Shown here piece by piece: positions 13,406-25,653 of a DNA stretch of 51,217 nucleotides (positions within the stretch are counted from its first letter, which is position 1; the number at the start of each line of letters is the position of its first letter). Origin of the DNA: an uncultured Spirochaetia bacterium (GTDB taxonomy: Bacteria; Desulfobacterota_D; UBA1144; Nemesobacterales; CSP1-2); the NCBI GenBank assembly GCA_964389705.1, contig CAYMEO010000005.1:1-51217 (forward strand). Reading direction: 5' to 3'. The notes under the pieces were generated by a model that searched no databases, was not told where the DNA came from, and saw nothing but the letters and a program-made list of their open reading frames with translations. The position numbers were made by a program, and so were the translations under genes.

Positions 13406-14092
13406 CTAGTCTGTAAATCCATTCCGAAAACCGTAGAGTATAAGTTCAGACCTATTTTTCACAGAGAGCTTCTTAAAGATTTTATATAGGTGAAATTTCA
13501 CAGTCTTTTCACTTAAGAAAAGATTTTTTGCTATATCCTTATTGCTACAGCCACTCAAAACCAATTTTACAACCTTCGTCTCAGTTTCAGTGAGATCATA
13601 TATAGACTTACTCCCCTTGGCTCCCCTACGCGGGGATGAAAAGGCTTCTAAAACTTTTATCATCATCTTTCTTTCCACCCATAGCTCCCCGTCGTTTACA
13701 GCCTTAACTGCCTTTATAAGCCGAGAGGAATCCGCGTTTTTCAGCAAATATCCCCTTACACCAGAACGAATGGCATTTATAAGCATATTTTCATTGTAGT
13801 CGCTATTTACAATTAGAATTACCTTAGTAGCCTTATTCTTTCTAAGTATTTGGAGAATCCTTGAGAGATTTAAACCCTGCAGATCAATATCAAGAAGCAA
13901 AATGTCAAAATTGAGTCCTTCACACACTTGAACAAGATCGAGTACATTGGAAACCTTGGACACTACCTGTATGGTTTTATCACTTTCAAGTATCTTACAA
14001 ACTCCTTCTACTAAGAGTGGGTAATAACAAGCTAATACTACACGTAAGGTCCCATCACTTTTCTTCGATTGGCTTCCATTTTGCATGGCCAT
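13406..14092 (-). CDS. NarL/LuxR-family regulator with atypical receiver domain (VpsT/CsgD-like)
   Basis: REC domain (LLLD, GYLLKN; acidic pair replaced by ACYY) plus a C-terminal LuxR HTH (LTETETKVVKLVLSGCSNKDIAKNLFLSEKTVKFHLYKIFKKL). Strong RBS GGAGG. Confidence 0.9.
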   Translation of the reverse strand: MAMQNGSQSKKSDGTLRVVLACYYPLLVEGVCKILESDKTIQVVSKVSNVLDLVQVCEGLNFDILLLDIDLQGLNLSRILQILRKNKATKVILIVNSDYNENMLINAIRSGVRGYLLKNADSSRLIKAVKAVNDGELWVERKMMIKVLEAFSSPRRGAKGSKSIYDLTETETKVVKLVLSGCSNKDIAKNLFLSEKTVKFHLYKIFKKLSVKNRSELILYGFRNGFTD

Positions 14093-14212: not shown

Positions 14213-14743
14213 CTACAGCGGCTCCATATCAAGAACATTAACCTCTACAGAAACAGACTTTTTTATAAGGTCTATAGACAATACAAACCTGTGTTTTGAG
14301 CGTTTCTCCATAATCCTACCGATTACCCCCTGTAGAGGACCACTTTTTATCAAGACTTCCCTTCCTCTGTCGAGGTAAGGATATGGATCATACTTTAGCT
14401 TGCTTTGAACAAGCGTCCTTATGGCCTCCACTTGCTCAGCGGGCACAGGCACAGGGGTACCATTACACCCCACTACTTTCAAGACCCCCTTTGTATACAT
14501 AACCCTATGTATATCTCCAAGGCCTACATTTACAAAAACATAAGAGGGAAAAAGGGGAACGTTTATAGTTTTATTACGGTCCTTCCATCTAGATACAATC
14601 TCCCTTAGAGGAAGAAAGGTTGTAACGCCTCGATTCTTCAAGTTTATTTCTGCTACCTTCTCATGTCGGCTCTTAGTATAAACAGCATACCACTCTTTTC
14701 CATTGGATAAGTCATCAACAACCGCTGATATGTCAAACGACAT
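14213..14743 (-). CDS. UpxY/RfaH-type NusG paralogue (transcription antiterminator)
   Basis: WYAVYTKSRHEK...FLPL...PLFPSYVFV NGN domain and KOW motif GREVLIKSGPLQGVIG; heads a polysaccharide operon. Confidence 0.9.
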   Translation of the reverse strand: MSFDISAVVDDLSNGKEWYAVYTKSRHEKVAEINLKNRGVTTFLPLREIVSRWKDRNKTINVPLFPSYVFVNVGLGDIHRVMYTKGVLKVVGCNGTPVPVPAEQVEAIRTLVQSKLKYDPYPYLDRGREVLIKSGPLQGVIGRIMEKRSKHRFVLSIDLIKKSVSVEVNVLDMEPL

Positions 14744-22696: not shown

Positions 22697-23719
22697 TCAG
22701 CTACTTTTCTCTTGCAAAATGCGGTCCAATCGGCAGCGGCGCTTATAAATAAACCAAGGAGAATAGTAGGGTCCCCAAAATCTATCCATCTCTGCATAAG
22801 TGATTCTCCGATTGCTCTGGATTCTACTTCGCTCTCTTAGGACCCGCGGTAGCTGTTTTAAGGCACTGATCTTGGCTTTAAACCTTGAAATGTCCTTCTT
22901 TTTTAATAGATAGTATCCATCTGCAAGTATATCATAAGCAACAATAAGAGGAGCATAATAGAGTATGTACCTAATAGGCCAGTCTTTCAGAATGGTCAAA
23001 ATTTTATTCCTCTCAAGCAGAAAGATCTTTCTACTCGATTCATGGCCCAGCGACCATGCATGGTGATGAAATACAACAGCCCTAGGAACGTATAAACACC
23101 GCCAACCGGCCAGTCTCGCCCGGAATGCTAAATCAACCTCTTCGTAATAGATGAAATAATCCTCATCAAATAGCCCTACGTCCTCAAAGACCTCCCTTTT
23201 ATAAAATGCTGCGCCGCCAGAAGGGCAGAACACCTCTTCAATCTGCTCGGAACCCCCTTCATCTATGGTAAGCCCCATCCTACCATATACATTGCCATCT
23301 TTACTAATCTCCACACCCGCACAATCTATGATGTCTCGACTAGAACTAAATAATACCTTGGAAGCCAGCATCCCTATTCCTTCATCCCTCGATTTAAACC
23401 TCATAAGCTCTTCCAACCATTTACTATCGGGAACCATATCATCGTCAAGCGTAACGATGTATCTTCCTCTGGCCTCTTTAATCCCCTGATTTCTCCCGCC
23501 AGCGCAACCCTTGTTTTCTTCGTTTTCTATGATCCTAACAGTGGGGTGTCTATTTTTAATCTCGTTTACATGGCTTTGATCCAATCCATTGGTGACCAGA
23601 ATAATCTCGAATTCCCTAAAGCTCTGCCGATATATGCCCTGTAAGCATCTGTCCAAGATTTTTCCTTGATCTCCCCATCTCGATGTCAGGATAATTATAG
23701 AAACTAGGTTTTGAGTCAT
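22697..23719 (-). CDS. Glycosyltransferase family 2 (rhamnosyltransferase-like subfamily)
   Basis: VSIII, LDDD (DxD), YYEEVDLAFRARLAGW. Start uncertain: 23719 matches the domain start; in-frame ATGs at 23845 and 23890 overlap the upstream gene. Confidence 0.85.
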   Translation of the reverse strand: MTQNLVSIIILTSRWGDQGKILDRCLQGIYRQSFREFEIILVTNGLDQSHVNEIKNRHPTVRIIENEENKGCAGGRNQGIKEARGRYIVTLDDDMVPDSKWLEELMRFKSRDEGIGMLASKVLFSSSRDIIDCAGVEISKDGNVYGRMGLTIDEGGSEQIEEVFCPSGGAAFYKREVFEDVGLFDEDYFIYYEEVDLAFRARLAGWRCLYVPRAVVFHHHAWSLGHESSRKIFLLERNKILTILKDWPIRYILYYAPLIVAYDILADGYYLLKKKDISRFKAKISALKQLPRVLRERSRIQSNRRITYAEMDRFWGPYYSPWFIYKRRCRLDRILQEKSS

Positions 23720-23831
23720 TGACTTAATAAAAGGAACGTAGTAGAAATCTGCTCTCGAAGTCGGATACCGCTCAGTAAATGTACCTACGAGTTGACTCTT
23801 GCCGTTGACAATGCGAAAATGGGAACTAATT

Positions 23832-25457
23832 TCATTTTGTGTCATAGGCCCCCACATCATACGCCGACCCTTGGGGTATAGTATCACCATAGAAGTCTGT
23901 CTGGCCCGGGTTTATACCAAATTGCGTTAAATTCAAGCCCGCATCAATGAGCGGAGATGTACTCCGCAATTGATAGGCAGTAAGTGTAGGAAGAAGGGTA
24001 GCATCACCAAAGGTCCCTCCTCCGCCTAGACTTACAAGCTCAGGGTCTACGTTAAATCCGGTAATTACATTTCCTATTTTCTCCTGGCCGGTAGCATTGC
24101 GCCAAGAACCTAAGTCGGTGTAAGTAGTAGAGCCCCATTTAATGGCAAAGCTATCGTCACTTGACCAGTAATCATTACCCTGAAACAAAATGCCGCTTTG
24201 TCCAGAAGGAACGTTTACCAATTGTAGGCCCCCTGTGGTTATAAAAATATTGTTGCGCACATGGACATTCACGGTAGGACCAGAGATGGATATTGCTTTG
24301 GGGCTGCCGCTAGGCGCCGGGCTTATATAGACTGTATTGTTATAAATCTCACTATTCTTAATTCCGCTTCCGTCATTCCACAACTGGATTCCTCCAAAGC
24401 CGTTCTTGCGTCCGTCGTCCTGACTAATGTTGTAACGGATGGTATTCCCATAAAAGGGCCGAGCACCGCTGAACTGTGCCAGTAAAAAACCAGCCCCGTC
24501 GTTGTCATGTGAATAATTATACTGCATGATTGAATTGGTCACCCCCCCGTCAAGGTCAAAACCCCCTCCATCGGCACTAGAGTCAGTAGCGTTGTTGTAA
24601 GACTCATTGTGCTGAATGATAATACTGTTTGAGTTCCAGGCCCAAATACCTATAGGGCCACCCACCGCTGTATTAAGCCATCCATTGTTATAGGCCACAG
24701 ACCATTCAATAATTCCCCCATTAACGTCTGAGATCACAATGCCATTCCCCGAATTATATGGTAATCCCGGTATTCCAGGATTATTATAGGCCTCGACGTA
24801 GCCTATATAGACGTCTTCATGAGCATAATCGGTTGCGGTTGAACTTAGAGAAGAATCGCCCCAAATCGAGATACCGGCATCTGCGTTATCATGAGCCGAT
24901 GTATTAGTAATACTAACGTCTCGAAAACCACTTTTACCATTATCCCCTACAATAGAAATACCAACCCCTCCAAATTCGCTGACCTCAACGCTGTCTATAT
25001 GTACATAATCCAATTTTATATCTCCCGGAAGATCATTGTAAAAAATTATTCCGTCGTCTGTATTGACCTCCCGACCAGCCCCAACGAAATTTATATTCTT
25101 TAGCATGTATCCAGCAGTATTGTAGGCGAAGAACCCGCTACCAGTACCTGCCTGAATGGTTGCACGACCCCGGCCATAAGAAGAGATAGTAATAGGAAGG
25201 GCACTTGTCCCCATTGAAGCAGAATCAAAGTAAAGATTACCGGTAAATGTGTTTCCGCCTTTAAATAAGATATTATCCCCCGCGGCAAATTTGGCCCTGT
25301 TTACTCGATTTATGGTTCTCCAGGCTTGCCTTCGCGAGGTTCCAGAATTACTGTCATCCCCCGAAGGACTGACATAGTAGGTAGTAGCATAAGCGTATGT
25401 GATTTCCCCCAAAAATATCGCTAAGGAAATTATAATCCCCCCTATCTTAAACCTCAT
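23832..25457 (-). CDS. Secreted right-handed parallel beta-helix protein, probable polysaccharide lyase/hydrolase
   Basis: Signal peptide (..ITYAYA/TTYYVSPSGDDSNSG), Asn/Gly-rich PbH1-like repeats (DGGGFDLDGG), C-terminal IDAG...D..G..IPQGSAYDVGAYD tail; SD AGGAGGTG at 25472-25465. Confidence 0.8.
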   Translation of the reverse strand: MRFKIGGIIISLAIFLGEITYAYATTYYVSPSGDDSNSGTSRRQAWRTINRVNRAKFAAGDNILFKGGNTFTGNLYFDSASMGTSALPITISSYGRGRATIQAGTGSGFFAYNTAGYMLKNINFVGAGREVNTDDGIIFYNDLPGDIKLDYVHIDSVEVSEFGGVGISIVGDNGKSGFRDVSITNTSAHDNADAGISIWGDSSLSSTATDYAHEDVYIGYVEAYNNPGIPGLPYNSGNGIVISDVNGGIIEWSVAYNNGWLNTAVGGPIGIWAWNSNSIIIQHNESYNNATDSSADGGGFDLDGGVTNSIMQYNYSHDNDGAGFLLAQFSGARPFYGNTIRYNISQDDGRKNGFGGIQLWNDGSGIKNSEIYNNTVYISPAPSGSPKAISISGPTVNVHVRNNIFITTGGLQLVNVPSGQSGILFQGNDYWSSDDSFAIKWGSTTYTDLGSWRNATGQEKIGNVITGFNVDPELVSLGGGGTFGDATLLPTLTAYQLRSTSPLIDAGLNLTQFGINPGQTDFYGDTIPQGSAYDVGAYDTK

Positions 25458-25561
25458 AATGGGTCACCTCCTACTAGTTTTTGTTACTTCCAGATGGAGG
25501 CAAACCATTAGCTGAGATGATTAGAAGCTAAGGGGATAAGATGAGAAAGCTCCTTGCTCTA

Positions 25562-25653
25562 CTTCGGTAACCCAGCCGCCATAGATTGCCCGCGCAATCT
25601 TTAGGCCGAAGGTTTTGCGCCCCATCCTTTTGGATGGTTTGCCTTTGTCGGTT
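25562..25653 (-). ncRNA. c-di-GMP-I (GEMM-I) riboswitch aptamer
   Basis: Minus strand reads ACCGACAAAGGCAAACCAUCC-AAAA-GGAUGGGGCGCAAAACCUUCGGCCUAAAGAUUGC-GCGG-GCAAUCUAUGGCGGCUGGGUUACCGAAG. It aligns position by position to the GEMM-I consensus (GGCAAACC, CGCAAA, CCUAA/UAUGG receptor, GGGUUACCGA). Confidence 0.9.

Follow-up and report, generated by a model that had tools for sequence, protein, structure and literature searches.

A candidate translational c-di-GMP-I riboswitch in front of a GH136-like glycosidase gene in a Candidatus Dadabacteria-like genome

The closest described counterpart of the element reported here is Vc2, the c-di-GMP-I (GEMM-I) riboswitch of tfoY in Vibrio cholerae. Vc2 is a translational OFF switch in which a ribosome-binding site (RBS) distant from the aptamer is masked, according to passages of PMC9262584 and PMC11705072 that cite Inuzuka 2018, and it is called an off-switch in 10.1101/617340. 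We analysed a stretch of 51,217 nucleotides (nt) of contig CAYMEO010000005.1, referred to below as the window, which carries on its minus strand an element of the same aptamer class upstream of a gene for a secreted protein related to the GH136 glycosidases. The likeness to Vc2 would extend to the translational OFF platform. A translational OFF switch responding to cyclic di-GMP (c-di-GMP) through this class of aptamer is already known in Vc2; what is new here is the host, the target gene and the detail of the competitor. In Vc2 the switching role is ascribed to helix P1 (PMC9262584), whereas in the window the competing strand pairs with the core of the ligand pocket, from the equivalent of G20 through the 5' strand of P2, and another partner seems to be available to P1. 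Moreover, the host is Candidatus Dadabacteria-like, and the target is a GH136-like glycosidase and not TfoY. Kinetic control, which enters our scenario below, has been proposed for Vc2 too (PMC9262584).

Other members of the class differ in platform or in polarity. Cd1 of Clostridioides difficile and Bc1 of Bacillus thuringiensis share the aptamer class and the OFF polarity, but they use intrinsic terminators (PMC9262584, PMC11218506). The window leader has none, as no terminator-like site was found on the minus strand between 25812 and 25458, and the platform is therefore taken to be translational. Vc1 (gbpA) is an ON switch and, like an element of Candidatus Brocadia carolinensis described below, combines the same aptamer class with a polarity opposite to the one predicted for the window element.

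We propose, with a probability of roughly 0.6, that the riboswitch of the window controls the initiation of translation of the GH136-like gene, that it is OFF in the presence of c-di-GMP, and that it acts through one switching strand shared between the aptamer and the Shine-Dalgarno sequence (SD). This proposal builds on the identity of the aptamer, the complementarities around it, their conservation and their in silico energetics. Such an element would be a compact and easily mutable natural translational c-di-GMP OFF switch from outside the usual model organisms, in which a strand of the pocket is itself the competitor for the anti-SD; the general understanding of how c-di-GMP-I riboswitches act is unchanged by it.

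Identity of the aptamer

A first reading of this DNA, made from the sequence only, had proposed a full GEMM-I aptamer and named a covariance-model search with the Rfam c-di-GMP-I model as one way to check it. That search matched RF01051 at 25653-25563 (minus strand, like all leader features below, which are given 5' to 3') over the full length of the model, positions 1-87 of 87, with 71.1 bits against a gathering score of 35 bits and E = 4.7e-12. No other Rfam family was matched in the scan of the 51-kb window. Judged by this match, the element is a genuine c-di-GMP-I riboswitch aptamer. The 5' strand of its P1 helix, CUCUA (25657-25653), pairs with UAGAG (25561-25557), and its core, AGGCAAACCAU (25644-25634; GGCAAACC in the form of the core motif), spans the G20 equivalent, the GC pairs, the AAA junction and 4 nt of the P2 5' strand.

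The sequence-only reading had also placed a G at the position that determines ligand specificity. The base is a G, but the position had been misplaced by one: it is 25643, the first G of GGC (AAA-G-GCAAACC) and not the second. Since both candidate positions are G, the conclusion about the specificity base is unchanged. In the Rfam alignment the equivalents of G20, A47 and C92 of Vc2 all carry the consensus base; they are G 25643, the first A of CGCAAAA and the CC in UUACCGAA, the last being presumably equivalent to C92. These three are the ligand-contact positions of Vc2 named in PMC11218506.

We then asked how widely this leader occurs. The regulated protein, of 541 amino acids (aa), has thousands of homologs, and we scanned for GEMM-I elements at 79 genome loci and 80 metagenome loci that encode such homologs. 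Among the loci scanned, only four shared the leader with the window: L001, a Candidatus Dadabacteria metagenome-assembled genome (MAG) that is 92% identical in the protein and 95% in the leader; L103 and L104, two metagenome contigs with 80% protein identity; and L183, a Logan contig with 75%. Together with the window they make up our alignment of five leaders (A2), all from one narrow clade of 75-100% protein identity, and all five retain every element of the leader. The aptamers of L001, L104 and L183 scored 66.2-72.2 bits with RF01051. The best match of the L103 aptamer (L103 1264-1396), which has an insertion of about 42 nt in distal P3, was the clan variant RF03167 (c-di-GMP-I-GGC), with 62.5 bits for a gathering score of 59. 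No riboswitch was found at L184 (P0008). Relatives of 70% identity or less, such as L105, were without this leader, and no GEMM-I was found beside them except for two independent elements (L021 and L110, see below), so that these five leaders are the basis of the covariation analysis.

These comparisons bear on whether the aptamer might be degenerate or might sense another dinucleotide, for instance 3'3'-cyclic GMP-AMP (3'3'-cGAMP), which we regard as very improbable. The GEMM-Ib riboswitches for 3'3'-cGAMP carry A at the G20 position, whereas the window element has G at the equivalent. The G20 position is described as contributing to selectivity without being a hard filter, and the aptamer fold of the GEMM-Ib riboswitches (Geobacter pilM type) is highly homologous (PMC9262584). 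The P2 tetraloop (25631-25628) is atypical as well, being AAAA in the window, L103, L104 and L183 and GAAA in L001 only; this non-GNRA loop stands alongside a receptor-like CCUAAA...UAUGG in P3. Two mismatches in P2/P3 of the L001 aptamer and the preference of the L103 aptamer for RF03167 point in the same direction. Against another ligand, however, stand the high score of the window aptamer on the standard model and its consensus A47 and C92 equivalents, in addition to the G itself.

One strand with two partners

Downstream of the aptamer, AUGGUUUGCCU (25508-25498) is the exact reverse complement of the core AGGCAAACCAU, and GCCUCC (25501-25496) is able to pair with the SD, GGAGGU (25471-25466); on both points the minus strand reads as the sequence-only reading had reported. 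The anti-aptamer and the anti-SD are fused in one switching strand, AAUGGUUUGCCUCC (25509-25496), for which the aptamer core and the SD are alternative, mutually exclusive pairing partners. Its duplex with the core was calculated at -17.7 kcal/mol in the window and at -14.0 to -16.9 kcal/mol in the relatives; here and below, energies come from nearest-neighbour parameters, without a ligand term or tertiary structure. With its other partner, the strand forms an SD-sequestering hairpin (25509-25458), found both in the minimum free energy (MFE) and centroid structures of the leader and in the RNAalifold consensus. The SD-closing helix that had been proposed is thus present, but it is longer than was then described: 17 bp and -20.5 kcal/mol, arranged as AAUGG-U-UUGCCUCC-AU-CUGG ... 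CUAG-UA-GGAGGUGA-C-CCAUU, with a lower stem AAUGG/CCAUU, a middle stem UUGCCUCC/GGAGGUGA and an upper stem CUGG/CUAG. The hairpin covers the entire SD and stops one base short of the AUG start codon (25457-25455). The SD itself, GGAGGUGA (25471-25464), within the strong sequence AGGAGGUGA, is invariant in the five leaders, and its core GGAGG (25471-25467) ends 9 nt before the AUG. Two further hairpins were noted in the leader: a linker hairpin UUAGCU...AGCUAA (25531-25508) directly 5' of the switching strand, and a predicted alternative to P1 (25565-25538), given by RNAalifold, in which the P1 3' strand GAAGUAGAG would pair with the downstream CUUUCUCAUCUU. A leader peptide was considered and rejected: the small open reading frames (ORFs) of the leader begin with TTG in every case and have no SD, and they were taken as noise.

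Could the complementarity between the aptamer and the platform be a coincidence? When the 91-nt aptamer was compared with the 105 nt of leader downstream of it, an exact Watson-Crick complement of at least 11 nt was reached in 6 of 5000 dinucleotide shuffles (P = 0.0012), so that chance does produce it on occasion, and the SD hairpin places its own constraint on the platform strand. On the other hand, the pairing persists at 92.7% of the alignment cells of the five leaders, and the complementarity recurs elsewhere. L081 (7771-7911), from a Gammaproteobacteria MAG, carries an unrelated GEMM-I element of 73.3 bits, downstream of which GGGUUUGCCUCC combines CCUCC with a stretch complementary to 10 nt of the element's own core. 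The MFE structure of L081 includes the anti-aptamer helix, and its GGGGG SD is paired with a run of CCCCC located 5'. Because the fusion is the same, the anti-aptamer/anti-SD design appears to recur, and we give coincidence hardly any credit. An exact-pattern scan of genome contigs with AGGCAAACC-N(100-130)-GGTTTGCCTCC returned 23 matches, about as many as expected by chance; the only real GEMM-I elements among them were L081 and L099, which lies on the same contig as L001. We also noted, just 5' of P1, a GAUGGUU (25666-25660) that is complementary over 7 nt to AACCAUC (25639-25633) of the P2 5' strand and looks similar to the anti-aptamer further downstream; the relatives keep only UGG.UG.

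The scenario that we propose is the following. An internal promoter would probably set the start of transcription some 50 nt before the aptamer. The strand AAUGGUUUGCCUCC would then choose between the core AGGCAAACCAU, including the G20-equivalent contact base, and the SD region GGAGGUGA..CCAUU. Binding of c-di-GMP would lock P1, P2 and P3, and from a locked aptamer the strand could only turn to the SD and close the 17-bp hairpin, repressing initiation (OFF). In the absence of ligand, the strand would invade the aptamer core once transcribed and the P1 3' strand would move to the downstream pyrimidine tract; invasion of the core would either leave the SD briefly free for a ribosome at the time it emerges, or make the opening of the hairpin cheaper at equilibrium. 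On the second of these options the ligand would behave as a dimmer; it would raise the cost of opening the SD (from about 12 to 18 kcal/mol), and not flip the site from open to shut. Ligand binding, the OFF polarity in vivo, a kinetic window and any polar effect on the overlapping gene for a glycosyltransferase of the GT2 family and on the GT4 genes are predictions of this scenario.

The polarity is derived from the architecture: the sole competitor for the anti-SD strand is the aptamer core, which the ligand sequesters, and ligand should therefore mean OFF. The opposite arrangement, an ON switch whose RBS would open when c-di-GMP binds, would suit the location of the gene within a glycan cluster, as c-di-GMP usually promotes polysaccharide production, and it has a precedent in the Candidatus Brocadia homolog, whose ON-type GEMM-I has a terminator overlapping the 3' side of the aptamer. 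However, an ON switch would need some other anti-anti-SD element, and none appeared in the leader folds or in the RNAalifold consensus; moreover, locking the aptamer raises the opening cost instead of lowering it. We consider this arrangement most unlikely.

Energetics and conservation of the switch

According to the sequence-only reading, the RBS would be closed with ligand and open without it. The OFF polarity holds up in view of the architecture, but the RBS is not simply open in the absence of ligand, where the SD hairpin, once transcribed, still wins by about 8-12 kcal/mol. In MFE folds of the growing chain, the ground state between 25500 and 25468 is the anti-aptamer helix, with 7-9 of its 11 bp formed; once the SD is out, at 25468, the SD hairpin together with an intact P2 replaces it. 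For the full-length transcript, a constrained fold places the open-SD state 7.8 kcal/mol above the MFE. Hand-drawn open and closed states are 13-16 kcal/mol apart, but these drawings are unoptimised and omit two GC junction pairs, and we prefer the constrained and ensemble values. In the ensemble calculated for the window, freeing the stretch from the SD through the AUG has a cost of 11.9 kcal/mol when the aptamer can be invaded and 17.8 kcal/mol when it is locked, and locking the aptamer raised this cost in all five homologs, by 2.0-8.3 kcal/mol. On these models, an RBS open without ligand would hold only as a transient co-transcriptional state or in the sense of a lowered opening cost.

The structure of the OFF state is well kept among the five leaders, with 94.4% of the alignment cells paired and four pairs changing on both sides, versus 1.0 +/- 0.9 in shuffles. 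P1 is paired in 100% of the cells and one of its positions covaries (U-A, U.G, C-G); with only five close sequences to compare, covariation is found in the aptamer helices P1, P2 and P3. The linker hairpin (95% of cells) shows one compensatory change from A-U to G-C, in L104. The SD hairpin is paired in 96% of the cells, its local energy ranges from -18.4 to -21.7 kcal/mol in the five homologs, and unguided RNAalifold recovers it as the consensus with 14-17 bp, in a register where a U-to-C change in L103 and L104 turns U.G into C-G.

Some of the changes concern the exchanges that our scenario requires. In L104 and L183 the CCAUU partner of AAUGG in the SD hairpin is lost, and AUGG is kept and still matches CCAU of the aptamer; retention of AUGG despite the loss of its hairpin partner favours a real use of the anti-aptamer. 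Likewise, columns 15 (P1 5' strand), 155 (P1 3' strand) and 169 (pyrimidine tract) of A2 change together, as U/A/U, U/G/U and C/G/C. These linked columns, which amount to one event in a single lineage, suggest an exchange between P1 and its alternative.

Several observations weigh against the switch as we propose it. Even without ligand, the SD-open fold lies about 8-16 kcal/mol above the SD-closed fold, and the upper stem together with a free CC offers a toehold by which the SD can displace the aptamer strand; in these models the ON state without ligand may last only briefly, and the switch may have a small dynamic range. The AAAA loop in place of a GNRA loop on P2 may weaken tetraloop-receptor docking. 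As to conservation, the leader is confined to five sequences of one narrow clade. The anti-aptamer 11-mer is perfect only in the window and L001, being imperfect in the other three leaders (an A.C mismatch and a terminal G.U in L103 and L104, a bulged G in L183), and in L103 and L104 the U-to-C change shifts the balance from the anti-aptamer towards the SD hairpin. No compensatory change was found in the anti-aptamer helix, and its support is therefore the chance statistic and its persistence, not covariation. Indeed, the aptamer side of this helix is held invariant for the ligand and the other side is constrained by the SD hairpin, so that conservation alone cannot prove that the anti-aptamer is used.

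In a rival reading, the aptamer is real but the SD hairpin stays closed in both states. The anti-aptamer would then not be a working switch, and ligand binding would have another output, such as Rho-dependent termination, the stability or processing of the mRNA, or the exchange between P1 and its alternative by itself. Such an arrangement would agree with the SD-closed fold being the ground state when no ligand term is included, with the imperfect and non-covarying anti-aptamer and with the linked changes in the alternative-to-P1 hairpin, as well as with Vc2, for which P1 is described as the key switching element (PMC9262584) and the preprint 10.1101/617340 reports a control of RNA stability by the ligand. 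It leaves unaccounted for, however, the exact 11-nt complement, the AUGG kept where its hairpin partner is lost, the effect of aptamer locking on the SD-opening cost in all five homologs, and the same fusion arising independently in L081. We consider an SD closed in both states rather unlikely, though to be taken seriously, and retain translational control through the shared strand as our preferred reading.

Promoter, target gene and other GEMM-I elements

The internal promoter assumed above had been proposed on the basis of a TTGACA, which is present at 25740-25735 as a candidate -35 box and is conserved in four of the five leaders (window, L001, L103 and L104), L183 having TGGAAA in its place. 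In the window, a possible -10 box, TGTAATAAA (25720-25712), is weak and comes with an extended -10 TG, and a scan with the sigma-70 consensus did not call a promoter at 25740-25735; there, the support for a promoter comes from the conservation of TTGACA by itself. L103 and L104 have TTGACA-16-TACAAT, which supports an internal promoter at this place. An inverted repeat UUGUGCA...UACACAA (25701-25673) follows the candidate promoter and precedes the aptamer, close to where the transcript is predicted to begin. Both of its arms, UUGUG(C/U)A...UACACAA, are kept in the five leaders, with a perfect 7 bp in L103 and L104, and it probably forms a 5' stem-loop of the transcript. In L183 the arms are kept around an insertion of about 90 nt, which fits an RNA stem better than a protein operator with fixed spacing.

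The regulated gene (23832-25457, minus strand) encodes a secreted right-handed beta-helix protein with, as identified by eye, a signal peptide ending in AYA|TTYY. It had been called a putative glycanase, and its similarity to the GH136 beta-helix glycosidases bears this out: PDB entries 7v6i, 7v6m and 5gqc were matched with E = 7.8e-23, 5.6e-21 and 9.8e-19, respectively, and the NCBIfam model LnbX with E = 7.5e-23. The LnbX score, 80.4 bits, is far below the equivalog cut-off of 2500, making the protein a distant relative and not an ortholog of the lacto-N-biosidase. Pfam gave no match for it even at E = 10, and its relatives carry PF13229. In the alignment with LnbX, a D..D.D in SSADGGGFDLDGG falls on the region DGQAWDAD (GNGDGQAWDADYG); the catalytic Asp residues of LnbX are taken to be D411 and D418. 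Both the N-terminal cap and the catalytic turns of the beta-helix are covered by the significant similarity to LnbX (PDB 5GQC/5GQF, 7V6I), a retaining enzyme with a beta-helix fold (PMC8106489). Unlike LnbX, the window protein is environmental and is encoded inside a biosynthetic cluster. Its sequence makes it a putative glycosidase.

The cluster runs on the same strand from about 38864 to 20308 and is of the ABC-transporter type. It opens with the genes of a Wzm/Wzt-like ABC-2 permease and ATPase, after which come seven GT2 genes, one carrying a fused deacetylase domain, and then genes for a methyltransferase and a polysaccharide deacetylase. The riboswitch lies in the 355-nt gap that follows, and beyond it are the beta-helix gene, a further GT2 gene and two GT4 genes. 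No GGDEF, EAL or HD-GYP domain was seen among the window ORFs scanned. The GT2 gene that follows the beta-helix gene (22697-23845, minus strand) likely starts at the ATG at 23845, a choice that we infer from the GGGGG before it; with this start it would overlap the end of the regulated ORF by 14 nt, and its translation could possibly be coupled to that of the regulated gene. In this way the riboswitch might also control the downstream glycosyltransferase genes. In L183, an IS605 OrfB-type transposase gene (L183 3336-4402) follows the beta-helix gene, replacing GT2 and GT4; the pair formed by the riboswitch and the beta-helix gene thus persists without the downstream glycosyltransferases. A link between c-di-GMP and a secreted GH136-like glycosidase encoded within a glycan-biosynthesis cluster of an uncultured lineage would hint at matrix remodelling.

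Another GEMM-I element was found in Candidatus Brocadia carolinensis (L021 2368-2496, 62.1 bits), some 460 nt ahead of the gene for a homolog (about 52% identity) of the regulated protein. It is followed by a strong terminator of -28.4 kcal/mol (z = -8.15) followed by a U-run, the 5' arm of which is the 3' side of the aptamer; from this sequence, the architecture implies an ON-type switch with ligand-dependent read-through. Three other Brocadia loci were without a GEMM-I of this type. A shared synteny between the window and Brocadia was considered and rejected, the upstream genes being unrelated. A further GEMM-I (L110 615-695, minus strand of the locus, 59.7 bits) lies beside a beta-helix homolog but is directed away from it, to a divergent gene.

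The sequence-only reading had seen a logic of dispersal in a glycosidase that would be made when c-di-GMP is low. This is one possible interpretation of the OFF polarity, and it would not be a general rule for the family of the regulated gene, since the Candidatus Brocadia homolog carries a GEMM-I of ON, terminator architecture. We can tentatively imagine a broader picture, without placing much confidence in it. The switch of the window would have two layers, c-di-GMP deciding, for the most part within a brief co-transcriptional window of time, both the exchange between P1 and its alternative and the exchange between the core and the fused anti-aptamer and anti-SD; moreover, secreted GH136-like beta-helix glycosidases would be recurrent targets of independently acquired GEMM-I elements whose polarity differs between phyla, OFF in the Dadabacteria-like lineage and ON in Candidatus Brocadia.

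Finally, elsewhere in the window, a gene for a NusG-domain paralog of 176 aa (14213-14743, minus strand) adjoins that of a LuxR-type response regulator (13406-14092, minus strand). By analogy with specialised NusG paralogs that are already known, this one might act as an antiterminator for the long polysaccharide operons nearby.

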